64,000 nt of DNA, from NCBI GenBank assembly GCA_964597345.1, contig CAZQXK010000001.1:94777-158776 (forward strand), given 5' to 3'. The stretch is from an uncultured Thermodesulfobacteriota bacterium (GTDB taxonomy: Bacteria > Desulfobacterota > Desulfarculia > JACQYL01). The notes beneath the pieces were generated by a model. The model saw only the letters and a program-made list of their open reading frames with translations, made no database searches and was not told the origin of the DNA. Position numbers and translations under genes: made by a program. Positions 6,993 to 39,257 of the stretch are shown in pieces (position 1 is the stretch's first letter; each line of letters begins with the position of its first letter).

Positions 6993-7136
6993 GACAAACA
7001 GCTTTGCGGGCAGGCCGGTGAACAACGATGAGATGCCAGGAGCGCGAACCCTGAGGAATGAGGCGTACATAGAGAGTACGCCGCAATGACGAAGGGTGAT
7101 GCGCAACGCCGCGGATCGCGTTTTTCACCGGCCTGC
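6993..7136 (-). repeat. intergenic imperfect-palindromic repeat, copy 1 (about 145 bp family)
   Basis: Shares the core ...TTGCGGGCAGGCCGGTGAA(c/a)AACGATGAGATGC(a/c)AGG(c/a)GCGCGAA(t/c)CCTGAGGAATGAGGCGTACA...GTACGCCGCAATGACGAAGG(a/g)TGA(a/t)GCGCAAC(a/g)C(c/g)GC(a/g)GATCGCGTTTTTCA with the other copies. Coordinates approximate. Confidence 0.8.
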
Positions 7137-7535
7137 TATGCAAGCAGACCCTGGAAGGCGGCCCCAGGTTTATTGGAGGCGGACGATTTTCGGATAGGCC
7201 GGGGAAAAAAGGGGCGCCGAGGCGGTGGGTTTCATACCTGGTCGCTCTATTGTGCAGCCCAGAGTTGCAGCGGTACGCGGCTCGAAGCCCCGTAGTTCCT
7301 CGGTGCGGATCGTTGTTTCCACCGCCAGACGACGGTGCGTGGGGTTCGGTCTTCAGCTACGGACCAACGGCCGGGTTTCCGTGCGCGCTGCTTTGCGATG
7401 ATTGGGTGATGCATACGGGGGATAGGAGGAAACCGCATACCGATTGTGGGTCGCTTTCCGAGTCCAGGCGCCGATTCTATTGCAATCTATCGGATTTCCT
7501 TATATCGTGAAGTCATCCATGGGGAAGGGGGATCC

Positions 7536-7850
7536 ATGAAGAAGGCCGCTACTAAGGAAGATATCATTACGCGCGTCCTGAAAGAACGAGATCGGCTTGT
7601 TTTCTTGGGCGTCATCAGTATTGGATTGTTTGGGTCCTTCGTGCGGGGTGACCAGAAGCTCTCAAGTGATATTGACATTCTGGTGGAATTCAGGCCTGAA
7701 AAGCATACCTTCGATAATTTTATGGAAGTTTCGTTTCTTCTGGAAGCAATCCTGGAGCGCAAGGTGGAAGTGGTTACCCCGGAGGGGCTCAGTCCTCATA
7801 TCGGACCGCACATTCTCAAGGAGGTGGAGCGTGTCCTTCTCATCGGCTGA
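7536..7850 (+). CDS. nucleotidyltransferase-domain antitoxin (MntA-like, minimal NTase)
   Basis: LFGSFVRGDQKLSSDIDILVEF matches the GS...DxD minimal nucleotidyltransferase motif. GGGGAAGGGGGA ribosome-binding site before the ATG. Followed 14 nt later by a HepT/DUF86 partner. GC content is lower than flanking DNA. Confidence 0.75.
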   Translation: MKKAATKEDIITRVLKERDRLVFLGVISIGLFGSFVRGDQKLSSDIDILVEFRPEKHTFDNFMEVSFLLEAILERKVEVVTPEGLSPHIGPHILKEVERVLLIG

Positions 7851-7863
7851 GTAAATCCGCCAC

Positions 7864-8172
7864 ATGCTCGACGAGATAGAATTCATCCTGAGCCGGACTT
7901 TAGATACGGATTACGAATCGTTTGTCAGGGACGAGACCCTCAAGAGAGCCTTTGTCCGAGGTATGGAAATCATTGGGGAGGCTGCGAAGAAAGTTTCTGA
8001 AGATGTGAAAAGGATGCAACAGGATATTGAGTGGCGGAAGGTGTCCGGAATGCGGGACAGGCTGATTCACGACTATTTTGGTGTCGACTACAAGATTGTC
8101 TGGGACGTTGCCACAAACAAACTGCCTGAGCTTCGAATGAAGCTCAATGCCCTGATTGGCATGATGGATTAA
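7864..8172 (+). CDS. HepT-like (DUF86) RNase toxin, partner of the MntA-like NTase
   Basis: RDRLIHDYFGVDYKIVW contains the Rx4HxY HEPN motif characteristic of HepT/DUF86. Size and pairing typical of type VII-like MntA/HepT modules. Confidence 0.75.
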   Translation: MLDEIEFILSRTLDTDYESFVRDETLKRAFVRGMEIIGEAAKKVSEDVKRMQQDIEWRKVSGMRDRLIHDYFGVDYKIVWDVATNKLPELRMKLNALIGMMD

Positions 8173-8334
8173 TGCCGACCATCCGTTCAACCGAACGCGG
8201 AAACAGCGATTTTCTTTTGAATCAGTTCCTGACGGTGTGCGGCGTTGTGTTCGGTGCAGTCGAGAATGGGGTAACAGGGAAGGAGAGTATGTCTCCTACT
8301 GTTCTGTAAACGGGACCGTGGAGAGTCTATTTTC

Positions 8335-8562
8335 GTGAGTCGCGACATACACGAACCGCCTCATGTCCACATCGATCGTGACGTTTTTTCAGCCAAGTTT
8401 GGCTTAACTCGTTGGCCATGGAAAATGTCCTATAAAACACTTTCCAGCAGATCTACTCGTGCCAAAATAATCATACAAACAGTGAGTTATGAAAATGCGT
8501 GTAATGAGAAAAATTTGACTTCTGAAGGTCGTACAGGTTATTTTAAAATAACTTTTTACTGA
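8335..8562 (+). pseudogene. DUF4160-like gene remnant (only the N-terminal motif conserved)
   Basis: GTG-start ORF. HEPPHVHIDRDVFSAKFGL resembles the DUF4160 N-terminal PPHFHxxY signature. The rest is unrelated low-complexity sequence. Lies in the AT-rich island. Confidence 0.25.
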
Positions 8563-8615
8563 GGAGGAGTTCAAAACGACCGGGAATAGCCAGATGATTC
8601 TGGAGGGGGTAGTAT

Positions 8616-8873
8616 ATGAAAGAATTACAAGTCAGATGCCAAACTCAAGATGGTATGTTCAGAGATGAAAAGGTTGTTACAGTTCGAGGAGAATCCGGAG
8701 AAAGAAGTTTTTTTGTTGATAAATCGCAACTAAGTCAAAATTTTGTTAGGGCAGTCGTTTTGCAAGAAGAGGAGTCACGATCTTTTATAGCAATTCCTGG
8801 CATGCCGGCCGATAGCGTCCCTACAAGACTTTGGATAGATAAGCAAAATATAACTTCCAAAAAACAAGTATAA
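8616..8873 (+). CDS. hypothetical small protein (85 aa) in the low-GC island
   Basis: Strong GGAGGGGG Shine-Dalgarno sequence 7 nt upstream of the ATG. No recognisable family. Confidence 0.4.
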   Translation: MKELQVRCQTQDGMFRDEKVVTVRGESGERSFFVDKSQLSQNFVRAVVLQEEESRSFIAIPGMPADSVPTRLWIDKQNITSKKQV

Positions 8874-8897
8874 ACTACTTTTTTGGATTATAAGAGC

Positions 8898-9496
8898 ATG
8901 ATTCTATCTGATGTAGATATTCAAAAGGCAATAGAGAGTGGCAGTTTCAAAATAGAACCGCGTCCTATTTATCCTGATGATTACGATACAACCTCTGTAA
9001 ACCTTCATCTCCATGATGAATTTCTGTCCTGGGAGTTAGATGACATAAAAAAGCGCTTGGTAAATCATTTAGCATACATGTTGGATCCTTCGATTATAGG
9101 ACGTTTGCCGATATTGCTGCTAAGTTAAAGAAGGAAGTCGATTATGAAGGTGCCGTAATCCTGAATCCAGGACAATTTATTCTGGCACAAACAATGGAAA
9201 TAGTGGGCAATAAAGATCCAAGCTGTTGCTTGGCCGCTCGCGTAGAGGGACGGAGTAGTTTGGCCAGGATAGGGCTAATGGTTCATATGACCGCTCCAAC
9301 CATACACGCTGGATTTGAAGGAAAAGTTACCCTCGAATTATTCAATACCGGCCCTATACCTTTACGGATGTGCCCAGGCGACAGCATTTGTCAGTTGATA
9401 ATAGAAAAGGTTAGCAGTCCACCAGGTGGTTCGATGGATGGAACACAGTTCCAGGGTCAGCAATCTCCTCGTGGATGCACACCGTCACCTACATGA
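8898..9496 (+). pseudogene. dcd: dCTP deaminase (dcd/dUTPase-fold), interrupted by one frameshift near 9060-9110
   Basis: N-terminal half in frame 0 (MILSDVDIQKAIESGSFKIEPRP...) ends at TAA 9126-9128. C-terminal half continues in the -1 frame, open from 9050: ...FADIAAKLKKEVDYEGAVILNPGQFILAQTMEIVG...GRSSLARIGLMVHMTAPTIHAGFEGKVTLELFNTGPIPLRMCPGDSICQLI. It aligns with E. coli Dcd ([26 protein letters not shown]...[35 protein letters not shown]). Combined length is about 200 aa, equal to an intact Dcd. Confidence 0.6.
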
Positions 9497-9593
9497 GGTG
9501 TAACAAGGCAGGATGGGGTCATGGCACCCCTAATGGCGGTCGGATGGCGGCCTGCGCGTGCGCTTCCCGCAGCCTCCCGCTGGAAGAACAGGA

Positions 9594-10295
9594 ATGAAAT
9601 TGGATAAAGTCAAAGAAATAGCGCAGCGGCGAATATGGACGGAAATTTTTTTGGGGCACAATGCAAGTTCTATGTATTTGTCATTATCTGAACATGCCGA
9701 AAGATTGAATCAATCGGACTCAAAAATTGTGTTCGGGTTGATGCAGCGGCACGCTCTTGATTCGCTTATACTATCTATAGGCAAGATTTATGACAAACCT
9801 TCTATAAAATATCCAAATTATAGCATTCCAACGGCCATAGAATGTATTAAAAAAGAGATGTCAAAAATAAGCAATCAAGCCAGTACCAAGATAAATCTCA
9901 TACAATTCATTCAAAAGCATATTGATCCTGGCTTCAATGAAGCCAGTAAAACGGACTTAGATCGAGTTCCGGAAATAATCGTCAACTGGTTAGATAAGAA
10001 CTGCCCTCGGACCCCTAAACGTTGCGGCTCTCAACTTGACCATGACCTTGAAGCCGTGAAGGTTTTGCGGGATAAACGTGTGGCCCATTCGGAGGATCAT
10101 GATCTTCAAGGGTTAAGCACGACAGATCTTGACGGTCCTCTCCGTCTACTGGCATTTGCCGGAACGTTTGTTAACCTTATCGGATATGGGTTCTTTGGGT
10201 CCTGCTCGGAATGTTTCGCGGATCCTGCAATGTTTGCTCCAGACAAGAGCGAGGTTTGGCCTCAGATGCAAAAACTGCTGAAAATGGTCAAATAA
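9594..10295 (+). CDS. Rx4-6H HEPN-like protein (AbiU2-like?), in the low-GC island
   Basis: 234-aa low-GC ORF with an R-x5-H motif (RDKRVAHSEDHD) that fits the HEPN RNase signature. Family assignment from memory only. Confidence 0.45.
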   Translation: MKLDKVKEIAQRRIWTEIFLGHNASSMYLSLSEHAERLNQSDSKIVFGLMQRHALDSLILSIGKIYDKPSIKYPNYSIPTAIECIKKEMSKISNQASTKINLIQFIQKHIDPGFNEASKTDLDRVPEIIVNWLDKNCPRTPKRCGSQLDHDLEAVKVLRDKRVAHSEDHDLQGLSTTDLDGPLRLLAFAGTFVNLIGYGFFGSCSECFADPAMFAPDKSEVWPQMQKLLKMVK

Positions 10296-10471
10296 GGCCC
10301 ATCACCGATCTGCAGGAGTGCTGATGGCTTAGCATGCAATTCGCCGGGCAGTGTTCAAAACTGTGCCAATCCGTTTCCATCTCCCTCGCCTTGCTCATTC
10401 ACCCACACCCCCCAATACATCCTCCCCATGCCCTCCCAAATCTACCACCGGCGTCTCGTCCCCCATCCTCT

Positions 10472-26543: not shown

Positions 26544-26854
26544 GTGGACCCTTTCCGGAAGCAGTGAAGCATGATTCGGATCCGTTCTCCTCTTCGGGAG
26601 GAAGATCGGGCCGACAGGGTTTCAGGATGGACTCCGCTTTTCGTGCCAGATTTTGCCCGATTTGTAAACCCCGCGTTGCAGGCGGCGGGCTTTCGTGCGT
26701 GCATGCATGCGAATCACGAAAAGGCAGGGAGACGAAACAGGGCGTGATGCAGTACAATAAGACAGTCGGTCCGGTACGGACGCGGAGAGAAGCGCACCGC
26801 GATGGGTCTACCGTGAATGGAGGCAGGATGTTTGCCGGAAAGGGGGGGACGCAC

Positions 26855-27838
26855 ATGAACGAGTACAGGAGAGTTTCGGAGTCATGGGGCGCCCGGGTGA
26901 AGGGCGCCGTGCTGGGACACGCCCTGGGGGATGCGTTGGGTATGCCTGTGGAGTTTGTTCCCAAACAGATTCTTCGATCCGATCCGGTGACGGGCATGCG
27001 GGGATTCGGGATGTTTCACCAGCCTCCGGGCACATGGTCCGACAATACCTCTCTCATGCTGTGCCTTTTGGAGACGCTTGTCGAGAAATGGGATCCGGAT
27101 CGATTGGCCGAGCGTCTTGTCTCCTGGCTGAATGAAGGCGTGTGGACCCCGCACGGCGTTGTTTTCGATGTGGGCGCTACCACCATGCGCGCCTTGTCCC
27201 GGATGCGGGAAGGCGCACGGCCTCTTCAGGCGGGTGAGCCCCATGAGAAGAGCAATCAGAACGGATCGCTGAAACGGGTTCTTCCGGTGGCGTTTCTGGA
27301 TCGATTATCCGATGAAGAGGCGGCGGATCTGGCGGATCAGGTGTCCTGTCTGACGCACCGGCATCCTCGGGCCCGAATGGCGTGCGGGTTGATGGTGCTC
27401 TTATGCAGGCGCCTCCTCCGGGGGGATTCGCCGGCGCAGGCGTATCGGGACGCGGTGGCCGCGGCGGATCCCATCTACGACAGAGCGCCGTATGCGGAGG
27501 AAAGATCCCATTTTGCGCGGTTTCTCGACGGGAAACTCGGGGAAATCGAGGAGCGCGGCATACGCTCCACGAATTACGTGGTGCATACGCTGGAGGCGTC
27601 CGTGTGGTGCATGCTTCAAACGGAGTCCTTCCGTGATGCCGTGCTGAAAGCGGTGAACCTGGGAAACGATACGGATTCCACGGGTTCGCTGACCGGAGGG
27701 TTGGCTGGTGCGACGTATGGATACTCCGCGCTCCCGACTTCCTGGCTGGAAGTCCTGGCCCGCAGGGAAGACCTGGAGGAACTGGTGGAGCGGTTCATTA
27801 GGGCTCGGAACGGAGGTGGGGACGAGGCGGCATCGTGA
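26855..27838 (+). CDS. ADP-ribosylglycohydrolase family protein (DraG-like)
   Basis: GAVLGHALGDALGMPVEF...DNTSLMLC...DTDSTGSLTGGLAGATYG are metal-binding ADP-ribosylglycohydrolase signatures. GGGGGGAC ribosome-binding site before the ATG. Confidence 0.75.
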   Translation: MNEYRRVSESWGARVKGAVLGHALGDALGMPVEFVPKQILRSDPVTGMRGFGMFHQPPGTWSDNTSLMLCLLETLVEKWDPDRLAERLVSWLNEGVWTPHGVVFDVGATTMRALSRMREGARPLQAGEPHEKSNQNGSLKRVLPVAFLDRLSDEEAADLADQVSCLTHRHPRARMACGLMVLLCRRLLRGDSPAQAYRDAVAAADPIYDRAPYAEERSHFARFLDGKLGEIEERGIRSTNYVVHTLEASVWCMLQTESFRDAVLKAVNLGNDTDSTGSLTGGLAGATYGYSALPTSWLEVLARREDLEELVERFIRARNGGGDEAAS

Positions 27839-29708: not shown

Positions 29709-31058
29709 GTGTACGGCAGTCCAGTGGAGAAGCACGGAGAAGATTGTTGTATGCGTGGATTGGGAATTCCTGGAGGTTTCTCTGAATGGGTATATCGCCG
29801 GATTCCCGGGCAACTTGTCATCCAGCTTACGGACCGGTGTAACGGCGCCTGTCCCCAGTGTGGGATGCGTGTCGGCGGGAAATATCCGAGATGCACGCTG
29901 TCCGTGGATGAAGGGAAACGCATCCTGGATGAAGCTGCAAGGCGGGGAGTTCGGGTCGTTTCTTTTACAGGGGGAGAGCCTCTCCTGGTTCTTCGAGAAC
30001 TCATTTCCTTGATTCGCCATGCCGGGCGCTTGGGCATTCCGTACATCCGCACCGGCACCAACGGGTTCGTGTTCATGAATTCGGAGCATCCCGGGTTTGA
30101 AACCCGAATCCAACGTATCGGGGAAGCACTCGCCGATACTCCCCTGAGGAATTTCTGGATCAGTCTGGATTCTTCGGTTCCCGGGATCCATGAACAGATG
30201 AGGGGCTTTCCCGGAATTATCCGAGGGATGGAAAAGGCTCTGAAGATTTTCCACGACCATGGGATCTACCCTTCGGCCAACTTGGGTATAAACCGCAACA
30301 TGGCGGGTGAGAAAACGGCGTCGGTCGGAATACCATGGCGGCCGGAAGACGGCGAGAGGCCAAGACGTTTCTATGAGCGTTATCGGGAAGCGTTCCGCCG
30401 GTTTTACCGATTTGTCATCCAATTGGGGTTTACCATGGTGAGCAGCTGTTATCCCATGAGCATGGAAGAATACGATGAGGGTGAGAAAAGGCTTGCCGTC
30501 TATGCGGCCGCTTCCACCGATTCAATCGTACGGTACACTCGATGGGAGAAGGCGCTGCTGTTCAAGGCCCTGCTGGAAACGGCGCCGGAATACCGGCCCC
30601 ACATCCGGGTGTTCTCTCCCTTGAGTTCCCTGCATGCCTTGTACAGACAGTACGCATACGGGAGAGAGCCCTATCCCTGTCTTGGAGGAAAAGCGTTCTT
30701 CTTCATTTCGGCGCGAGACGGTGACACCTACCCCTGCGGCTTTCGAGGTTCGGATAATCTGGGCAAATTCCAGGATGTCCCCTGGGGCTCTCTTAAGGAT
30801 TCCCCGCGATGTTCCCGCTGCGATTGGGAGTGTTTTCGGGACCCGTCGGAATTTATGGGCCTCCCGCTGGAACTTCTGACCGATCCTCTTTCTTTGTTAA
30901 AAAACTGGGGACGGAGATCGGTGTGCTTTCGCCTTTGGATTCGTGACCTGATGTATAGTCGCGCCTGCGACTTCTTCAACGGCCGAAAAGCGCCGAATTT
31001 GGATCGAATGCGCCGATTTACAACGGCGAAAGAGGAAAACGAAAAAACGGATGGGTGA
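29709..31058 (+). CDS. radical SAM protein with C-terminal SPASM-like Cys-rich domain
   Basis: CNGACPQC radical SAM cluster motif followed by a SAM-binding GGEPLL. C-terminal cysteines (CLGGKAFFFISARDGDTYPCGF...CSRCDWEC) resemble a SPASM/twitch domain. True start may be the internal M at 29751. Confidence 0.65.
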   Translation: MYGSPVEKHGEDCCMRGLGIPGGFSEWVYRRIPGQLVIQLTDRCNGACPQCGMRVGGKYPRCTLSVDEGKRILDEAARRGVRVVSFTGGEPLLVLRELISLIRHAGRLGIPYIRTGTNGFVFMNSEHPGFETRIQRIGEALADTPLRNFWISLDSSVPGIHEQMRGFPGIIRGMEKALKIFHDHGIYPSANLGINRNMAGEKTASVGIPWRPEDGERPRRFYERYREAFRRFYRFVIQLGFTMVSSCYPMSMEEYDEGEKRLAVYAAASTDSIVRYTRWEKALLFKALLETAPEYRPHIRVFSPLSSLHALYRQYAYGREPYPCLGGKAFFFISARDGDTYPCGFRGSDNLGKFQDVPWGSLKDSPRCSRCDWECFRDPSEFMGLPLELLTDPLSLLKNWGRRSVCFRLWIRDLMYSRACDFFNGRKAPNLDRMRRFTTAKEENEKTDG

Positions 31059-31194
31059 TCGAGCGGTCCGCGGTTGAAATTCCCCAACACACGAACTCCG
31101 GCTTGCCGCTTTGAGAACCCCGTTGAACTCTCCGAGTACCTCATCCGCCTGTCCGTTGAATGGGACGGCCCCCCGAGGGAGTCTGCAGGGTTCG

Positions 31195-32496
31195 TTAAAG
31201 CAGACGGGCGCCCATCTCGGCCACCTTGGAACGTTCCCCTTTGACCAATGTCACGTGCCCGGCAAGGTCGCTTTCCTTGAACTTTTCGACCAGATAACAC
31301 AAACCGTTGCTGGAAGCGTCTAGATAAGGGTGATCGATCTGATCGGGGTCGCCGGTAAAGACAATCTTACTGCCATCTCCAACGCGAGTGACCAACGTCT
31401 TGATCATGTTGGGGGAAAGGTTCTGAGCCTCATCGCATAGAATGAATTGGCCGGGAATGCTCCGCCCGCGGATGTACGTCAACGCTTCCATCTCCACCAG
31501 ACCCCTTCTCATGAAATCGTCCAGAATGCCTAACGGTTCGTGGCATCCGTGAAACAGGTATTCCAAATTGTCGTAGATCGGCTGCATCCATGGCCGAAGT
31601 TTCTCTTCTTTGGACCCCGGCAAGTATCCGAGATCATTTCCCATAGGGATCACCGGCCGGGTGATCAACAAACGGGAGTAGACGCGTTTTTCCAGGACCT
31701 TTTCGAGACCTGCGGCCAAGGCGAACAGCGTCTTGCCGGTTCCCGCGGGGCCGACCAGGGTGACAATTTTGACGGAATCGTCCAAGAGCAGGTCCAGAGC
31801 AAACTTCTGTTCCTTGTTTCGAGGGCTGATACCCCAAGCGGAAGATCGTTCCGGAGACAACAAGAGAAGCCTCTGGTCGGCATATCGACCGAGGGCGGAC
31901 TGGGAGGGGTTTGTCATGTTTTTGAGCACTATGAACGTGTGTGGGTAGAGATGTGGCTCCGAGTTCCAGGGAATCTCGTGGTGTTCGAACAGGGCGTTCA
32001 TCCGTTCTCGATCCAGGAGGTGTTCGGTAACGCCCGCGTACAAACGGTCCGGGTCCACCTTGTCTGCACGGAAGTCCTCGGCCTGAATACCCAGAACGTC
32101 GGCTTTGATACGGAGGTTCAGGTCCTTTGTAACCACAATGATGGGGTGTGGATGTTCCTGCTTCAGATTACAGGCCACGGCCAGGATACGATTGTCGCTT
32201 TTTGAGGGATCAAGACCCTTTGGGAAAGAAACGACCTCCTGATGATTCAGTTCCACCCGCAGGAGGCCTCCTGAAGGAAGGCGGACGCCTTCGGAAAGCC
32301 GCCCTGAGGAACGCAGGTCGTCCAGGTGGCGGGATACCATTCGGGCGTGGCGTCCGATTTCATCCTGCTTCCTTTTGCAGTTATCGATTTCTTCGACAAC
32401 TGCAAAAGGAAGCACTATGAGGTTATCTGAAAAGGCAAACAGCGCACCGGGATTGTGAAGCAATACGTTGGTATCCAGAACATACGTTTTGGGCAT
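31195..32496 (-). CDS. PIN-domain + PhoH-like ATPase (YlaK family)
   Basis: N-terminal PIN (MPKTYVLDTNVLLHNP) and C-terminal PhoH Walker A (LVGPAGTGKTLFALAAG). Confidence 0.8.
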   Translation of the reverse strand: MPKTYVLDTNVLLHNPGALFAFSDNLIVLPFAVVEEIDNCKRKQDEIGRHARMVSRHLDDLRSSGRLSEGVRLPSGGLLRVELNHQEVVSFPKGLDPSKSDNRILAVACNLKQEHPHPIIVVTKDLNLRIKADVLGIQAEDFRADKVDPDRLYAGVTEHLLDRERMNALFEHHEIPWNSEPHLYPHTFIVLKNMTNPSQSALGRYADQRLLLLSPERSSAWGISPRNKEQKFALDLLLDDSVKIVTLVGPAGTGKTLFALAAGLEKVLEKRVYSRLLITRPVIPMGNDLGYLPGSKEEKLRPWMQPIYDNLEYLFHGCHEPLGILDDFMRRGLVEMEALTYIRGRSIPGQFILCDEAQNLSPNMIKTLVTRVGDGSKIVFTGDPDQIDHPYLDASSNGLCYLVEKFKESDLAGHVTLVKGERSKVAEMGARLL

Positions 32497-32531
32497 CTGG
32501 CGTGCTCTCCCTGTTCGGCGGAAAAGCGGAG

Positions 32532-34994
32532 TCACACGGCGGAGGAAAAGCCGTGCATGTCCTTGGCGTGCGGCGCCGTGTTTTCATAGTACATTTTCCA
32601 GGTTTCATTGAAGGCGTGTTCAAAGGAGCGGTCTTCCATATAGGCGCGGGCCATGCTTCCCATCCTGCGGAGCATGTCCGGATCACGAATCAGGGAATCT
32701 ATGGCTTCCCTCATGCTGCGGACGTCATGAGCGGAAACCACAAGACCCGTACGACGGGGGATCAGGTTTTCCTGGGGTCCTCCGAGATCCGTCACCACTA
32801 CGGGCAGACCCGAGGCTTGAGCTTCCAGCACGACATTTCCGAATGTATCCGTGCTGCTCGGGAAAACAAACAAATCGCAAGACGCATACAGTTTTGCCAA
32901 TGCTTCCCCCGCCAGGTATCCTGTAAAGCAATGAGGCGTACCCTCCAGTTTCTCCTGCAACAGGCTTTGATAGGGTCCTTCCCCGGCCAAAAGGAGAGAT
33001 ACGCGATTCCCGGAATCCAGGAGGCTTTTGAATACGGACACGAGCAAGTCCAGGTCCTTTTCCTTGGATATCCTCCCCACGTACAACAGTTTGAAGCTTT
33101 CCAGGTCCGTGTAGCGGCGGATGAATTGGTCATCCCGCTTGTCCGGGTGGAAACGAACGATATCGATACCCCGAGGGAACAGGCGTATCTTTTCGGGAGC
33201 GATGCCCTTGTCCGCGAGTTCCCGGCCGGTGCTTTGAGAAGGTACGTATATGGCATCCAGTTGGTCGTAGTACCAGATGACGTACTTCCACATGAGTTCT
33301 TCCAGAGAATGGTCACGCGTCAAGTACGCCGTGTATTGGGGAAGTGAGGTATGGTACGTGCCGCTGATGGGGAGCTTGAGGATCTTGGAGACGGCCAGTC
33401 CGGCCAGCCCGACCGGTCCCGGGGTCGCCGTACTGATATGGGTGAAACCCTGAACGTGACAGAATTGCAGGATATCCAGGAAAGGGGGACAGAACAGCTT
33501 CAGGAGGGGGTATTCGGGCAGATCGTACATTCCGATGGGCCTGAAATTGCGTACCCCCGGGGAGTCAAGAGATGGATCCGCGCTGCACGTGATTACGGTG
33601 AACTGTTTATGGGTTTTTCGCGCCAACGCGAGTTGCTGTTGAAGGGTCAGCGCGACTCCATTGACTTCGTAATAGGTGTCCGTGAAGTGCGCCACGTTCA
33701 TGGGCCGTATGTTTTCTCGTACAGGAGAAGAGTGCACCCCGAAACGTTCGGCCATGGTATGAGCCATCCGACGATCCCCGGCGAACAGGGAAAAGGACAC
33801 GAAGTACGGTGAAAGCAGCACGAATAAAGCACCGGCGGAGCTTGCGGACTGCAAGAGGTTAAGCAGGTTCCCTCCCGAGATCTGTCGGATCAGGTTCTCG
33901 CCGAAATGCAACAGCACGCGGTTCGATACCCTGTTCACGAATTCAAACCATGTCGATTCCGGCTCTTCTTGTTCCTGGTACCCCCAGCGGATGATACGGC
34001 GAAGCTCGGGGTCGTCTTGAATGAGCCTCTGGCCCTCCCGGCGCAACAGATGTTGAACACTGGAAGTATGGTGCGGTTCCTCGAAGTGTTTTCGAGGTTT
34101 CCAGAGCCCATAGATCTTGGACCATACGCCGCTGCGGCCCGGAGAATCTTCTTGAACCAGGAATCGGTCCAGAAACCGTAGAAACAGGTCTCTGTGCAGA
34201 TGTTTGGAGAGGTGAAATCGCTGCTTGTAGAATTGGTACGCAATGCTGTACAAATTATGGGACATTCGCAAGGGAGATGAAGGTTCTCCGTGGATTTGCG
34301 CAGTGCCTGATTGGACACCCAGGAGAAAGTCATTCAGGTCTCGAGCTCCGGGAACTTCCGTGTAGACGCGAGCCACATCCAGAGAACTGTGATCGTCGGA
34401 TCCTCCCACGAGATGTTTCATCCACGGTTCCGGAAATGCAGGCTCCAGACGATGCTTTTCGGCCAGTTTCTCGATGTGCGATGGTGTCAATGTACGAAGA
34501 ATGACATCCAGAACCTGGTTCAATAACGCCTCTCGCGCACCGTTGAGTTCAAAAGTCTTGAATAGAAGCAGGAAACGTTCAAAGTGATGAACGGTCAACC
34601 GTTCATTAATCGAGTAGAGAGGATGCGCAAGAGCGTGAACTATATTCTGAGATTGGAGATAAGTTACAAGATCTAAAATATTGTGGCGTAATTTTTGGAT
34701 CTCTGGCACGTGGTCTTCGCGGATGTCGTAGATAAGTACATGCGCTTTACATTGATCCTCGGGAAAGTATGTCGTGGTCTCCATGCTTAAGAAAGTGTCG
34801 GGCAAATGAGCGATTTCTAATGCCCCGGCTATGGTGTTGTGATCCGTTATGGTTAGCAGAGACATGCCTCTTTCCCTGGCGCGTTTCACAATACGCTTGG
34901 GTTCCGTGAAGCTTTCCGGGCAACCTAGTTTCTGAAGCACCCATGAGTTCGGCCTCTTGGAGAACTTGGAATGAACATGAAGATCCGCTTTCAT
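32532..34994 (-). CDS. fusion protein: N-terminal PHP-family phosphoesterase domain + C-terminal GT4 (group 1) glycosyltransferase
   Basis: MKADLHVHSKFS...ITDHNTIAG...HPLY are PHP metal-binding motifs. C-terminal retaining GT4 signature (EGFGNVVLEAQASGLPVVVTDLGG). 820 aa. Confidence 0.75.
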   Translation of the reverse strand: MKADLHVHSKFSKRPNSWVLQKLGCPESFTEPKRIVKRARERGMSLLTITDHNTIAGALEIAHLPDTFLSMETTTYFPEDQCKAHVLIYDIREDHVPEIQKLRHNILDLVTYLQSQNIVHALAHPLYSINERLTVHHFERFLLLFKTFELNGAREALLNQVLDVILRTLTPSHIEKLAEKHRLEPAFPEPWMKHLVGGSDDHSSLDVARVYTEVPGARDLNDFLLGVQSGTAQIHGEPSSPLRMSHNLYSIAYQFYKQRFHLSKHLHRDLFLRFLDRFLVQEDSPGRSGVWSKIYGLWKPRKHFEEPHHTSSVQHLLRREGQRLIQDDPELRRIIRWGYQEQEEPESTWFEFVNRVSNRVLLHFGENLIRQISGGNLLNLLQSASSAGALFVLLSPYFVSFSLFAGDRRMAHTMAERFGVHSSPVRENIRPMNVAHFTDTYYEVNGVALTLQQQLALARKTHKQFTVITCSADPSLDSPGVRNFRPIGMYDLPEYPLLKLFCPPFLDILQFCHVQGFTHISTATPGPVGLAGLAVSKILKLPISGTYHTSLPQYTAYLTRDHSLEELMWKYVIWYYDQLDAIYVPSQSTGRELADKGIAPEKIRLFPRGIDIVRFHPDKRDDQFIRRYTDLESFKLLYVGRISKEKDLDLLVSVFKSLLDSGNRVSLLLAGEGPYQSLLQEKLEGTPHCFTGYLAGEALAKLYASCDLFVFPSSTDTFGNVVLEAQASGLPVVVTDLGGPQENLIPRRTGLVVSAHDVRSMREAIDSLIRDPDMLRRMGSMARAYMEDRSFEHAFNETWKMYYENTAPHAKDMHGFSSAV

Positions 34995-35330
34995 GATATA
35001 GCTCCTGTGATTGAATAGCCTTGATACGAATGATTTGGATTTGTCCGGGGAAGGCTGCAGATTCCGGCCGGGAATTTCTGTTCAGTGGTCAGAGGATTGG
35101 ATTCTATAGAGTTATTGTATTTATGGATAATTAATAAGTAGTTTAGGTGACATAAATTATGTAGAAGTATAAGATTAGTTGTCTTAGAATAAGTGTAATA
35201 GAAATATATATGTGCTGTAGCGCTATTGATGTGCTTTGTCGGTATTATTAGCAACATATAGGAATTATAAGTCCACATAAATGGATAAAAGGTGTCTGCT
35301 TGAAACTATTGACCGGCTATATGCTATGAA
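34995..35330. promoter_or_regulatory. about 335-bp strongly AT-rich divergent intergenic region (likely promoter/curved DNA) upstream of the PHP-GT4 gene, preceding a further about 300-nt GC-normal leader before the CysS-like gene
   Basis: Local GC about 30% against about 62% genome background. Runs of A/T tracts (TATTTATGGATAATTAATAAGTAGTTTAGG...). Confidence 0.4.
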
Positions 35331-35626
35331 TGTATCATTCGGCGTATTCATGTTGCCCTATCGATAGGCAAAACCCTGCGTATATTCGGACGAATCGTTT
35401 GACGAAAGTATTTCGATTTTCAGAAATCATGGTAACGAACCGATTTCGTTTCGCCGGCCTTCCGGTACGCCTTAATCCCCGGAACTTCCGGCGGGGCCTC
35501 GACCGTGAACGGGTGGAGGGACGCGGACTTGACAGCGAAAGAAGGCCGGAACATAAAGGAAAGACTCGGACCGGCGAACGGTTTGGCCACGATCGGTGAC
35601 GGCGGATCGGGAAGGAGGCGGAATTC

Positions 35627-36889
35627 GTGGAGAAGCGTTCAGAAAGACCATTCAACCTGCATCTTACCAATACCATGAGTCGCAAGAAAGAGCCGTTTCG
35701 TCCCCGGCAGGACGTGGTGAAGATGTTCACCTGCGGGCCGTCCGTGTATCGGAAACCGCATGTGGGCAACTATCGTACCTTCCTGTTTGAGGACGTTCTT
35801 CAGAGATACCTGGAATACCTTGGGTTTCGCGTGGATCGGGTGATCAATTTCACGGATGTGGAGGATAAATCCCTGGCGGAGGCCATGACGCAGGGGATTG
35901 CCCTGAGAAACGTGACTCACCCTATGGAAAGGGAATTTTTCGAGGACTCCAAAAGGCTTTCCATCAAATTGCCCGAAGTGATTCCTCGCGCCTCCGACTG
36001 CGTCGAAGAGGCGGTGGAACTCATTCAAAGACTACTGAAGGAGGGGAATGCCTATTGGTATGGACCGGACGTCTTTTTCGATCCCCTAACCTTTCCCGGA
36101 TTCGGCAAACTGTTCCGGCTGGATATGAGCCGATGGCCCAAGGAAAAACGGCGCTACCGAAAAGATACGTATCCGGGAGAGCGTTGGAACCTGGGCGATT
36201 TTATCTTGTGGCACGGCTACAGGGAGGAATCCCCGGTCTATTGGGAAACCGATATCGGCAGAGGCCGGCCCGCATGGAACATCCAGGACCCGGCCATCAT
36301 AGCCAAACACCTGGGATATGAGGTCGACATTTGTTGCGGAGGCGCGGACAATCTGTACCGTCACCATGATTACACCATAGCGGTTATGGAAAGCCTTTCG
36401 AAAAAGGATCTGGCCCGGTATTGGCTGCACGGGCAGCACCTCCTGGTGGATGGGACGAAAATGTCCAAGAGCAAAGGGAACATCGTATACCTGGAGGAGC
36501 TGATCCGGCAGGGGATAACCCCCGCGCAGGCGCGCTTTTTCTTGATTTACGGTCATTATGGAAAACGGATGAGCCTCACTATGCCCGATGTCCGGAATGC
36601 GGCCGGTCGGTTGGATGCCTTCCAGGAGAGACTGCGTGTTTTACTGGGAGATGTGAAATCGACGTCGGCGCCCCGGGAGCCTTCGGCCAGAGAGGAAGAG
36701 CTTCTGCGAGCGTTCGAAGAATCCATGAACGACGACTTGAACGTGGAGAACGCCTTTGACGCCGTGGATCATCGCGTGTGCAGGCTCCTTTCCCTCAAGG
36801 AGTCCGGAGAGTTGGACGGGCGTGATTCGGCCTCCATCCGTCGTGCCTTGGCCCGAATCAATTCCGTGCTGCAGGTGTTGTCTTTATAG
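35627..36889 (+). CDS. cysteinyl-tRNA-synthetase paralogue (class I, KMSKS present, HIGH degenerated to HVGN, C-terminal anticodon-binding extension absent): MshC-like cysteine ligase candidate
   Basis: Aligns with E. coli CysS along the catalytic domain (LHLTNTMSRKKEPFRP / LKIFNTLTRQKEEFKP; CGPSVYRKPHVGNYRTF / CGITVYDLCHIGHGRTF; KMSKSKGN). Only about 138 aa after KMSKS (420 aa total against 461). WNIQDPA replaces WHIECSA, which carries the Zn-ligand Cys in E. coli. AGGAGG ribosome-binding site before the GTG start. Confidence 0.7.
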   Translation: MEKRSERPFNLHLTNTMSRKKEPFRPRQDVVKMFTCGPSVYRKPHVGNYRTFLFEDVLQRYLEYLGFRVDRVINFTDVEDKSLAEAMTQGIALRNVTHPMEREFFEDSKRLSIKLPEVIPRASDCVEEAVELIQRLLKEGNAYWYGPDVFFDPLTFPGFGKLFRLDMSRWPKEKRRYRKDTYPGERWNLGDFILWHGYREESPVYWETDIGRGRPAWNIQDPAIIAKHLGYEVDICCGGADNLYRHHDYTIAVMESLSKKDLARYWLHGQHLLVDGTKMSKSKGNIVYLEELIRQGITPAQARFFLIYGHYGKRMSLTMPDVRNAAGRLDAFQERLRVLLGDVKSTSAPREPSAREEELLRAFEESMNDDLNVENAFDAVDHRVCRLLSLKESGELDGRDSASIRRALARINSVLQVLSL

Positions 36890-36995: not shown

Positions 36996-39257
36996 ATGCG
37001 CCTTCGATGGCTTCCCTGGAAATTCATACTTCGTCAGGCCGCCCGAGCCCACGGGTTCCTGGATCCTTTGCGGATCTTTTCACAGCTCACGAAGTTCGCG
37101 CAACCTTCGGAAGTAGCGGCTCCCGTGGAGTTGATCCGGGCCGGGCTCGTCTTCCACGCACGGGGTCTGCTCAACACCAAAGCCATTCAGAATAACCTGG
37201 ACTGGATATGGCCCTTCTGGGTGCGCCGCCAGTTTGATCCCCGGGATCGAGCCTTTGTCCCGAGGGCTTTTTCCATCACACATGTAAATCTGACCAACAG
37301 AAATTGGACCGCCGTCGGGGTTCCGGATGTTCCGGTATTTCCTTTGGTGGATCCTCGAGGACTCGTGACGCCGTTCTTTGATGGTTGGTCTCTGGATTCC
37401 TGGATCGTGTCCCCGGCGGATGGGATGCTGGTTCCTTCCCAGTTGCATGACCTGGAGCAAACCCTTCAGTATGATGCGGGTCGACTGGCCGTTTGTACGC
37501 GGTGTCGCACGAAGGAATTTCAATTGGAGTCCGTCGTGGAAACGGAAATACGCGGCAACAGGCCCTATTGCAGAGTACGGTACGGCATCCGGGCGGAAGG
37601 TCTTCGTGGAGCCTGGTTTGCCCTGGCAGTGCGGCCTTATAATCCCGAAGGGGTCAGTTTTGTACATCACATCTCCGCGTCGCCCGATGGGAGGGCGTGG
37701 ACCGTGAACCATATTCCATGCATGCAGTTGGAGCCCGCCATGAAGCGTCATGTGTGCTCCACCTACAAACAGGGTGATGTCTTTCTGAGACTGCTGGAGC
37801 ACCGGGAACGTCTCGAAACGGAGTGCCATGTGGGCATGGCGTCCGGAGCGGCCCTGTACGAACTGCCGCCCCAGGGCTCCTTGGATGTCCAGGTCCGTGT
37901 GGACTTGTGTGCGGACCCTCAGACGAAGATCCCCGTTTCAACGAGAAGGGCGAACCGGAGCTGGAAGGAGGCCCTGGAAGGGATATGCGCGTTGACGGTT
38001 CCGGATCATCGAATGCGGTTTTTGTACGAGGCGGCGGTTCGGTTTATGATTCTTCATACTCCTCTGGACGTGTATCCGGGACCCTTCACGTACAAAAGGT
38101 TCTGGTTTCGGGATGCGGTTCTAATCCTCCATGCGTTGCTTTGCGTCGGTGCGCATGAACGGGTGGAGCGGGCCGTGAACCGGTTTCCCCGGCGACAGAG
38201 CGTGGCCGGCTACTTCCATTCCCAGGAAGGAGAGTGGGACTCCAATGGGCAGGTGCTCTGGTTCATGCGCAGGTTCTGCGAAGTGACCGGGCGTCCGTGC
38301 CCCACGGAATGGTTTAAGGCCTTGAAAAAAGGGGCTGCGTGGATTCTCCGCAAGAGGCTTCCGGCGGATTCGGAAGAACTCCATGCGGGGCTTCTTCCGG
38401 CGGGTTTCAGTGCGGAGCATTTCGGGAACAACGATTACTATTATTGGGATGACTATTGGGCTGTTGCCGGGTTGCGGTCTGCGGCCGCCGTCTGCGAAGA
38501 GGAAGGAAATGAACGGGAGGCGATGCGATTCCAGAAGGAGGCGGATCGGTTCATGGAAAGTGTGGAGAGATCTTTGGAACGCTCCAAGACGATTCGGCGC
38601 CACGAGGGCATCCCGGCATCTCCCTATCGCAGAATGGATTCGGGGGCCGTGGGCTCTATGGTGGCGAGCTACCCCCTCCAGTTGTTGCCCGCGGAAGAGC
38701 CGAGGCTTCTGAGTACCATCGAATATCTGCTGGAGCACTGCTTCGTCTCCGATGCATTTTTTCAGGACATGATTCATTCGGGAATGAACGTATATCTTTC
38801 GCTGCACTGCGCCCAAGTGCTTTTGAGGGCCGGAGATCCGCGATTCTATCCCATCGTGATGCGGGTGGTCGAATTGGCCTCCCCCACGGGGCAATGGCCC
38901 GAGGCCATTCACCCGCAAACGTTGGGTGGCTGCATGGGAGACGGCCAACATATGTGGGCCGCGGCGGAATGGGTCATGATGATGCGTAACCTGTTCGTGC
39001 GGGAGGAAGATCGGAAGTTGGTTCTGCTTCAAGGAATTCCGGAATCCTGGTGGAGGGCGGGGCAACTCATGGAGATCGGACCGGTGCACACCCGTTTTGG
39101 CTCACTGCACCTGAAAGTTCAACCCGGTTCGGAGGGTTTCCAAGCCTCTTGGGAGGCTTCCTGGCATTCTCCTCCCGAAGCAATGGAAATTTGTTGCATG
39201 GATGGAAAGAAGCTTTCTTTGCCGGGATTGAACCAGGGGAGTGTCTCCGTCGCTTAG
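36996..39257 (+). CDS. large six-hairpin-type glycoside hydrolase-like protein (GH63/GDE-like?), function unknown
   Basis: 753-aa soluble protein. Weak recognition only (aromatic/acidic-rich C-terminal half, e.g. GDGQHMWAAAEW). Ribosome-binding site before the ATG at 36996. Confidence 0.35.
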   Translation: MRLRWLPWKFILRQAARAHGFLDPLRIFSQLTKFAQPSEVAAPVELIRAGLVFHARGLLNTKAIQNNLDWIWPFWVRRQFDPRDRAFVPRAFSITHVNLTNRNWTAVGVPDVPVFPLVDPRGLVTPFFDGWSLDSWIVSPADGMLVPSQLHDLEQTLQYDAGRLAVCTRCRTKEFQLESVVETEIRGNRPYCRVRYGIRAEGLRGAWFALAVRPYNPEGVSFVHHISASPDGRAWTVNHIPCMQLEPAMKRHVCSTYKQGDVFLRLLEHRERLETECHVGMASGAALYELPPQGSLDVQVRVDLCADPQTKIPVSTRRANRSWKEALEGICALTVPDHRMRFLYEAAVRFMILHTPLDVYPGPFTYKRFWFRDAVLILHALLCVGAHERVERAVNRFPRRQSVAGYFHSQEGEWDSNGQVLWFMRRFCEVTGRPCPTEWFKALKKGAAWILRKRLPADSEELHAGLLPAGFSAEHFGNNDYYYWDDYWAVAGLRSAAAVCEEEGNEREAMRFQKEADRFMESVERSLERSKTIRRHEGIPASPYRRMDSGAVGSMVASYPLQLLPAEEPRLLSTIEYLLEHCFVSDAFFQDMIHSGMNVYLSLHCAQVLLRAGDPRFYPIVMRVVELASPTGQWPEAIHPQTLGGCMGDGQHMWAAAEWVMMMRNLFVREEDRKLVLLQGIPESWWRAGQLMEIGPVHTRFGSLHLKVQPGSEGFQASWEASWHSPPEAMEICCMDGKKLSLPGLNQGSVSVA

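Follow-up and report, generated by a model that had tools for sequence, protein, structure and literature searches.

Time and again, synthetase paralogues that no longer read the anticodon have proved to catalyse new reactions. For example, MshC helps to make mycothiol, Glu-Q-RS modifies tRNA, PoxA modifies EF-P, and CysRS* takes part in UGA recoding. The structure of MshC keeps a cysteine-binding zinc site, and mshC is a solitary gene. Glu-Q-RS (YadB), a truncated GluRS paralogue, glutamylates queuosine in tRNA(Asp). In this study, we analysed a stretch of 64,000 nucleotides (the window) from an uncultured Thermodesulfobacteriota bacterium (GTDB lineage Desulfobacterota; Desulfarculia; JACQYL01; assembly GCA_964597345.1, contig CAZQXK010000001.1, positions 94,777 to 158,776), and within it a gene derived from cysteinyl-tRNA synthetase (CysRS) at 35627..36889 on the + strand. 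Judged from its sequence, the encoded protein belongs to a distinct, uncharacterised family descended from CysRS, and no description of this family was found in the full-text literature searched.

The closest described systems differ in how much of CysRS they keep. In E. coli CysRS, the published zinc ligands are C28, C209, H234, and E238 (PMC7563103). Engineered C209D greatly reduces the translation activity of the E. coli enzyme (PMC10655014, PMC7563103), and this variant retains persulfide synthase activity (PMC10655014). The CP1 motif of CysRS reads the acceptor stem's first base pair (PMC5389517). CysRS* of some Desulfobacterales, defined by a selC*-selB*-cysS* locus and a PTVS CP1 motif, has been proposed to charge the selC* tRNA(Cys); it was inactive in E. 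coli, and the proposed function was recapitulated with an engineered variant of D. tiedjei CysRS (PMC5389517). CysS2 of Cupriavidus metallidurans is encoded in the Zur-repressed cobW1 operon (PMC10882993), which suggests that scarce zinc can select for CysRS variants with a changed metal site.

The gene starts with GTG, stops with TAG, and encodes 420 amino acids, and it is present as such in the list of open reading frames (ORFs). A Shine-Dalgarno sequence, AGGAGG, was read directly from the sequence at 35613..35618 (+), 8 nt before the GTG start; Met17 was ruled out as the start because family-conserved residues already begin at residue 11. The protein matched Pfam tRNA-synt_1e (E=4e-69) and, weakly and over residues 362-420, DALR_2 (E=0.0019). 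HMMER comparison with solved CysRS structures gave E=3e-64 for 8qhp and E=3e-57 for E. coli 1li5. The AlphaFold2 model, for which a 31-sequence alignment was the input, had a pLDDT of 88 and a pTM of 0.90, and Foldseek searches with it returned CysRS structures at the top (TM 0.82-0.85), with MshC at TM 0.79. The model predicts a CysRS fold with confidence. Relative to a 96%-identical relative, dN/dS was 0.20, and none of the 16 substitutions fell in signature residues. A pseudogene or a gene in decay was ruled out by the invariant signature residues, this dN/dS, and the intact ORF with its Shine-Dalgarno sequence; the ORF is, as read from its sequence, a real and intact gene of a functional family member.

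Residue states such as H206N and C209D are given in E. coli CysRS numbering, and Cys237, Arg245, and Tyr249 in the numbering of the query protein. Homologues were collected by an exhaustive phmmer search against 1.84 billion cluster representatives followed by a motif table, and 66 family sequences were compared residue by residue with 102 canonical ones, the closest canonical full-length CysRSs. In the HMMER alignment with 1li5, HVGN (residues 45-48) lies on HIGH, WNIQD (217-221) on WHIEC, RHHDYT (245-250) on PHHENE, and KMSKS (278-282) on KMSKS. The sequence-only reading had placed HVGN on HIGH, had found Cys209 replaced by Asp in WHIEC, and had called KMSKS intact, and the alignment agrees on all three. 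It had also called the HIGH motif degenerate, and this description did not survive the comparison. HVGN (35759..35770, +) is the common HxGN form of the signature: Asn is the fourth residue in 86 of the 102 canonical CysRSs, and the enzymes with this form have WHIEC, PHHENE, and KMSKS intact and the tail of about 60 residues present. Degeneracy of HIGH as a sign of lost function was thus ruled out, HxGN being the majority canonical state. HxGH is absent from the whole query and from the N-terminal 120 residues of 120 homologues; hence an indel artefact at the HIGH region, which had been raised as a concern, does not explain the alignment.

HVGN is ordinary, but the finding is real, and it lies in the zinc and amino-acid pocket. 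Here WNIQD (36275..36289, +) replaces WHIEC. At positions 206, 208, and 209, canonical CysRSs have H, E, and C with 100% conservation, whereas the family has N, Q, and D at 98-100%; the zinc ligand C209, present in 102/102 canonical sequences, is Asp221 in 100% of the family. RHHDYT (36359..36376, +) replaces PHHENE through P233R, E236D, N237Y, and E238T, with H234 and H235 kept. The ligand E238, again found in all 102 canonical sequences, is Thr or Asn at residue 250 in 100% of the family. Cys36 (35732..35734, +), the equivalent of Cys28 of E. coli CysRS, is retained and is invariant in both the family and canonical CysRS. Two of the four zinc ligands (C209 and E238) are therefore replaced in the family, and C28 and H234 remain. 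The second-shell residues H206, E208, and H224 are also gone from the pocket. His224, present in 101/102 canonical CysRSs, is A, S, or C at residue 236 in the family, and Cys236-Cys237 (36332..36337, +) stands in place of the canonical His224-Gly225 in the query; the new Cys237 is conserved in 63 of the 66 family sequences. S210P is a further change, and Arg245, Tyr249, and Cys237 are the new invariant residues of the pocket. The sequence-only reading had missed E238T/N, H206N, E208Q, P233R, N237Y, the loss of H224, and the gain of Cys237.

Fifteen positions are conserved within each group yet differ between the family and canonical CysRS, and most of them lie in the pocket segments 206-210 and 233-238 and in the CP domain. 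The family keeps C28, G29, H37, G39, T68, D69, W205, D229, H234, H235, and K266-S270, the KMSKS signature being intact at 36458..36472 (+). The variant pocket states were invariant or nearly so in 121 homologous sequences. Because of this near-invariance and the dN/dS of 0.20, chance or decay does not account for the pocket changes. These comparisons show a systematic rebuilding of the zinc and amino-acid pocket; the class I Rossmann fold is kept, and so are all elements for ATP binding and aminoacyl-adenylate formation.

The family comprises more than 120 homologues of 55-60% identity and about 415-430 aa, with almost invariant pocket states. Our working definition is W-N-[IV]-Q-D, R-H-H-D-Y-[NT], D-I-x-C-G-G, a basic W-P-K-x-K-R-R loop, a length of about 400-430 aa, and the absence of PF23493, and the query protein shows all of these characters. 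A GTDB scan with family-specific peptide patterns found the family in at least 495 species genomes. The main hosts are Syntrophobacteraceae, Desulfobacterales, and other Thermodesulfobacteriota; further bacterial hosts are Nitrospiraceae, Spirochaetaceae, and Chitinivibrionales, and archaeal hosts are Methanomicrobiales, ANME-1 Methanophagales, and Bathyarchaeota. All hosts are strict anaerobes. Genomes that carry the family include those of Desulforhabdus amnigena and Desulfoferrobacter suflitae DRH4, as well as OY762941.1 and CAXXLZ010000002.1. A neighbour-joining tree built from 132 near-full-length representatives recovered the family as monophyletic (bootstrap 36/40), with a stem branch five times as long as the median internal one; the clade took in one frameshifted member and one degenerate offshoot. 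This offshoot, P0160 (430 aa), is nested in the clade, has Ser for Cys28, HLGQ for HIGH, and RMTAR for KMSKS, and has lost the RHHDY motif; judged by its sequence, it probably arose from the family as a pseudoenzyme. The sister of the family in the tree was a short Micrarchaeota protein (P0184, MCX6769407.1, named "class I tRNA ligase family protein") with the intermediate motifs WNVQC and NHHENT. Like the family, it is short (405 aa), has N206, Q208, and T238, and scores below the cysS cut-off (278 bits); it differs in keeping Cys209 and in having no Arg245 or Tyr249, and it is only 34% identical.

Curated models recognise the protein neither as CysRS nor as MshC. On the cysS model TIGR00435, the query scored 282.4 bits against a cut-off of 340, and on the MshC model TIGR03447 it scored 188.7 bits against a cut-off of 485; the profile check proposed in the sequence-only reading thus places it below both (282 < 340; 189 < 485). 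NCBI names family members "class I tRNA ligase family protein" only, and JGI misnames them cysteinyl-tRNA synthetase. Other CysRS-like proteins without the anticodon-binding domain (ABD) reached 352-408 bits on the cysS model, which argues that pocket remodelling, and not truncation, sets the family apart. Such ABD-less groups of about 400-416 aa include P0133, P0135, P0151, P0166, P0197, P0210, P0238, P0251, P0257, and P0260; the zinc site is canonical in some of them and carries C209 to Asp (WHIED or WHIQD) in others, and at least one of the proteins is from a DPANN archaeon (Ca. Ainarchaeum). When nine of the ten were scanned with the cysS model (P0260 was left out), eight scored above 340 bits, and P0257 scored 334.7. 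Full-length CysRSs with WHIED were also seen (P0152 and P0267).

The query protein shares with canonical CysRS (TIGR00435; PDB 1LI5, 1U0B, and 8QHP) the fold (TM 0.82-0.85), the HIGH (HxGN) and KMSKS signatures, the SC-fold and helical domain, and 30-38% identity. It differs in that the family lacks the PF23493 domain, which reads GCA, has C209D and E238N/T at the zinc ligands, and has a loop of charge +6 in place of CP1. The protein ends in a helical region (36581..36886, +) with the weak DALR_2 match and model helices at 319-415, and the alpha/beta anticodon-binding domain is absent. A C-terminal loss of about 60 aa had been read from the sequence, and it was confirmed: 101 canonical representatives run at least 50 residues, and typically 55-70, past the last residue of the query, and Pfam PF23493 was listed for canonical matches and never for family matches. 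By its sequence, the family enzyme would not serve as the usual route to Cys-tRNA(Cys). The sequence-only reading had gone further and suggested an amino-acid ligase acting on a non-tRNA acceptor. Its first part holds, namely a non-standard CysRS with the adenylation apparatus kept, but the acceptor does not follow, because there are ABD-less CysRS forms that act on tRNA or are annotated as the CysRS of the cell, and CysRS* is a published precedent for such a paralogue with a proposed tRNA substrate; short DPANN CysRS forms are still above the cysS cut-off.

A family-specific basic loop of the CP domain (FRLDMSRWPKEKRRYRKDTYPGER; 36113..36184, +) replaces the CP1 motif. Its consensus is L-D-M-S-R-W-P-K-K-K-R-R-F-R-K-D-T-Y-P-G-x-R-W-N-L-G, with little or no variation at W170, P171, D180, T181, Y182, and G184. 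The net charge of the loop is +6 in the family vs -1 in canonical CysRS, and the median isoelectric point (pI) is 9.0 vs 6.0. The low pLDDT suggests that the loop is probably flexible in the modelled protein. As predicted from sequence, the basic loop and the high pI agree with RNA or another polyanionic acceptor no less than with a small molecule. The CP1 position was inferred by matching E. coli QAGA164-167 to MSGA164-167 of Dt CysRS (PMC5389517).

The missing ABD and the altered loop bring CysRS* to mind, under which the family would be a dedicated ABD-less CysRS that charges a selC*-type tRNA(Cys)UCA for the insertion of cysteine at UGA (PMC5389517). Both are CysRS-like proteins that have no ABD and occur in related bacteria, CysRS* as an extra copy and the family in Desulfobacterales and Syntrophobacteria, and both have an altered CP1 motif starting with Pro (PKxK vs PTVS). 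However, the family reads W-P-K-(K/E)-K-R-R at the CP1 position, and no representative has PTVS or MSGA there; these motifs occur only in two canonical sequences, at residues 16 and 1. Neither selB* nor a tRNA resembling selC* adjoins the gene in the window or in any examined locus, 58 of which were scanned for tRNAs, and no selB-like neighbour is conserved in the clustered family loci. The family is also far wider than "a subgroup of Desulfobacterales", archaea included, and a remodelled zinc pocket is unexpected if the enzyme must charge cysteine. Context and CP1 motif led us to reject CysRS* identity, and we regard membership in that system as highly improbable.

The partly kept zinc site could also mean that the protein still makes Cys-tRNA(Cys) as a genuine synthetase, its metal site having been remade as Cys/Asp/His: a zinc-sparing or alternative-metal enzyme that would serve as a backup or main enzyme in sulfidic, zinc-poor habitats. 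The confinement of the family to strict anaerobes of sulfidic settings fits this, as do the retention of C28, W205, H234, and T68, the competence of Asp as a zinc ligand, and the occurrence of WHIED in full-length CysRSs. Forms of CysRS that have no ABD are found in DPANN archaea, CysRS* is another, and the Zur regulon of Cupriavidus contains CysS2, a CysRS paralogue induced by zinc starvation (PMC10882993). CysS2 is thus a second CysRS-type gene tied to zinc availability; the family was compared with it by description, and no Zur-type context or operator was found for the family. No shared upstream palindrome, k-mer, or Zur/Fur-like motif was detected across 84 family loci, and CobW, FUR/Zur, and Znu Pfam families were absent from ten Pfam-annotated loci, which is a weak negative. 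The anticodon-binding domain and the CP1 motif, both major readers of tRNA(Cys) identity, are gone. E238, H206, E208, and H224 are all replaced, though each is invariant in 101-102 of the 102 canonical enzymes, and in E. coli CysRS, C209D by itself severely impairs translation activity (PMC10655014). We therefore consider a zinc-sparing CysRS rather unlikely.

The same E. coli result points to a role outside ligation, since C209D keeps its persulfide synthase activity at greatly reduced translation activity (PMC10655014): the protein might be a cysteine persulfide synthase of the CARS type, or a regulatory or binding pseudoenzyme. Among the proposed PLP-binding lysines, which lie in the KIIK (K73, K76) and KMSK (K266, K269) motifs, K73, K266, and K269 are invariant in the family, its hosts have a sulfur-centred metabolism, and P0160, without C28, HIGH, and KMSKS, indicates that catalytic decay does occur in the clade. 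The fourth lysine position, K76, is A, E, or S in the family; this position is also variable in canonical CysRS (R 31, K 27, A 21; n=102). On the other hand, the strict His and Gly of HIGH, KMSKS, D229, and T68/D69 in the core family argue for adenylation with ATP, a step that persulfide synthesis can do without, and pocket changes that occur together and bring in invariant Arg, Tyr, and Cys resemble re-specification and not relaxation. A non-ligase role is, in our view, quite improbable.

The reading that we favour, tentatively and as a possibility short of probable, is an anticodon-independent, adenylate-forming ligase with altered specificity and a polyanionic acceptor, most plausibly RNA. 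The enzyme would activate an amino acid as the adenylate. This amino acid would be cysteine held on a Cys/Asp/His metal site, or a related, possibly anionic or sulfur-bearing one, engaged by the new Arg and Tyr. Without anticodon reading, it would then be transferred to a polyanionic acceptor, and the likeliest candidate would be an RNA, such as a tRNA, loaded at its 3' end or on a modified nucleoside, for which Glu-Q-RS/YadB and CysRS* serve as analogies. Glu-Q-RS differs in being derived from GluRS and is homologous to the CysRS-derived family only in the class I core. With a tRNA encoded elsewhere as its partner, the gene would be expected to be solitary and to have no operon partner, as it is.

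Neighbour clustering covered about 80 family loci, and no partner gene was conserved across the family. Neighbours were co-directional and close in 18/75 cases upstream and 14/74 downstream. Syntrophobacteraceae show lineage-level synteny around the family gene with abhydrolase-OsmC, HPF-CSD, a CNNM-type transporter, and EngB, the HPF-CSD and EngB genes flanking it. A gene for an ArfB-like peptidyl-tRNA hydrolase of about 140 aa, with an RF-1 domain, a GGQ motif, and a basic tail, was found near the family gene in 6/80 species and in three arrangements, within 2.5 kb in L003/L004/L007, L035, L040, L046, L047, and L055. In one divergent member (L087), the IF-1 gene lies directly upstream. These translation-linked neighbours (ArfB-like, IF-1, HPF, EngB), occurring in separate lineages, lend weak support to a link with RNA. 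No domain fusions hinting at an acceptor were found among family members; the length is uniform, and the single long member has a low-complexity tail.

Several points weigh against an RNA-directed ligase. Basic charge and scattered translation neighbours are weak hints of an acceptor, and canonical CysRSs, which bind tRNA, are acidic. No tRNA gene is associated with the family: none lies in the window, and those in 2/58 scanned loci are unrelated. Because MshC has the same architecture and mshC is itself solitary, the lack of an operon is no argument against a small-molecule acceptor. Cysteine may still be the substrate, since zinc can be coordinated by Asp and WHIED occurs in full-length CysRSs (P0152 and P0267). 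The family may also have a housekeeping role, since a canonical cysS alongside it was seen at the order or class level only: Desulfobacterales have canonical cysS (PMC5389517), and canonical CysRS is present in Chitinivibrionia (P0512; homologue search).

In the window itself, the CysRS-like gene follows a 632-bp spacer and is divergent from a PHP-GT4 fusion gene; downstream are a gene for a 753-aa GH15-like protein and then another GT4 gene. The fusion gene (32532-34994, -) encodes an 820-aa protein with a weak N-terminal PHP-like part (E=4.5e-4), a Pfam-blank middle, and a C-terminal GT4 glycosyltransferase part, and it adjoins the CysRS-like gene in the close relative L086 as well. The 753-aa protein (36996-39257, +) has no Pfam match and only faintly resembles glucoamylase/oligosaccharide amylase (GH15-like) in NCBIfam at E about 3e-3. 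Its gene may be co-transcribed with the CysRS-like gene, judging from the 107-bp gap with no terminator-like site detected.

This setting bears on whether the protein is a ligase like MshC, which would adenylate an amino acid and couple it through an amide bond to an amino sugar or another small amine for the synthesis of a low-molecular-weight thiol or other metabolite in anaerobes. MshC (Cys:GlcN-Ins ligase, TIGR03447; PDB 3C8Z and 8HFM) has the same architecture, a CysRS core and helical domain with no anticodon-binding domain and about 410-420 aa; it shares the adenylate-forming chemistry, is usually encoded by a solitary gene, and matched our model at TM 0.79. Anaerobic sulfate reducers and methanogens are generally without glutathione, and in the window, two GT4 glycosyltransferases and the weakly GH15-like protein flank the gene. 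However, this arrangement is common to the 96%-identical relative only and occurs in none of the other loci (about 80), so that a function deduced from these flanking genes was ruled out at the family level. The GT4 neighbours scored 82-121 bits on the MshA model against a cut-off of 462. Unlike MshC, the family has hosts outside Actinobacteria and an altered cysteine-binding zinc site, and its score on the MshC model is far below the cut-off. Partners of the mycothiol type (mshA, mshB, mshD) do not recur, nor does any deacetylase, acetyltransferase, or other pathway partner among the loci, and a neutral sugar acceptor does not obviously explain the large gain of positive charge. We hold an MshC-like ligase to be possible, though on balance unlikely.

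A bolder form of the favoured ligase reading is that the family is a synthetase switched to an anionic or sulfur-modified amino acid, which it would load onto tRNA without anticodon reading. Cysteine persulfide, S-sulfocysteine, cysteine sulfinate, and phosphoserine would be the candidates for a site made of Arg245, Tyr249, and Cys/Asp/His. As for a link to the SepRS/SepCysS pathway, the bacterial hosts of SepRS in one published study are reportedly Parcubacteria and Chloroflexi; no CysRS-like partner of SepRS was found in the literature searched, and one SepRS-like homologue group was tentatively assigned to Deltaproteobacteria. We think such a switch improbable.

The 632-bp spacer (34995-35626) is AT-rich, and the 34-36 kb block has a GC content of 0.48 vs about 0.58 in the neighbouring blocks. 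A consensus scan gave a promoter-like site, TTGACC-18-TATCAT, at 35309-35338 (+), and right after it lies a perfect 19-bp palindrome, TTGCCCTATCGATAGGCAA, at 35353-35371 (+). The spacer is 88% identical in L086, where the palindrome is kept, and the palindrome was not found in other family loci. By its sequence and position, it is a possible local operator. No Rfam family, including T-box and riboswitch in the 632-bp leader, was detected near the gene even at E<=1. Further upstream, at 26564-27838 (+) and 29709-32535, the window encodes an ADP-ribosylglycohydrolase (E=8e-78), a protein of the radical SAM type, and a PIN-PhoH ATPase; synteny with L086 extends to the genes of the latter two. At 7000-10300, there is a low-GC islet (0.43 vs about 0.60 in the flanks) with no notable repeats found; it contains a run of small + strand ORFs of about 75-245 aa at 7446-10295 and may be a horizontally acquired cassette.

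The family is an uncharacterised and widespread synthetase derivative. It is large (at least 495 species) and is strongly conserved in both Bacteria and Archaea, in strict anaerobes that drive sulfur and methane cycling. The changes in its pocket hit the very residues that give CysRS its zinc-based selectivity for cysteine, and the family is thus a natural experiment in re-specifying a metal-dependent site for an amino acid. Automated annotation should not count family genes as cysS when genome completeness or cysteine-coding pathways are assessed. The family may reveal a new amino-acid conjugate, a new modification of tRNA or another RNA, or a zinc-sparing route to Cys-tRNA. If the improbable switch of specificity were true, it would be a previously unknown natural aminoacylation that feeds translation or tRNA-dependent biosynthesis, and an activity common to sulfate reducers, syntrophs, methanogens, and ANME archaea.

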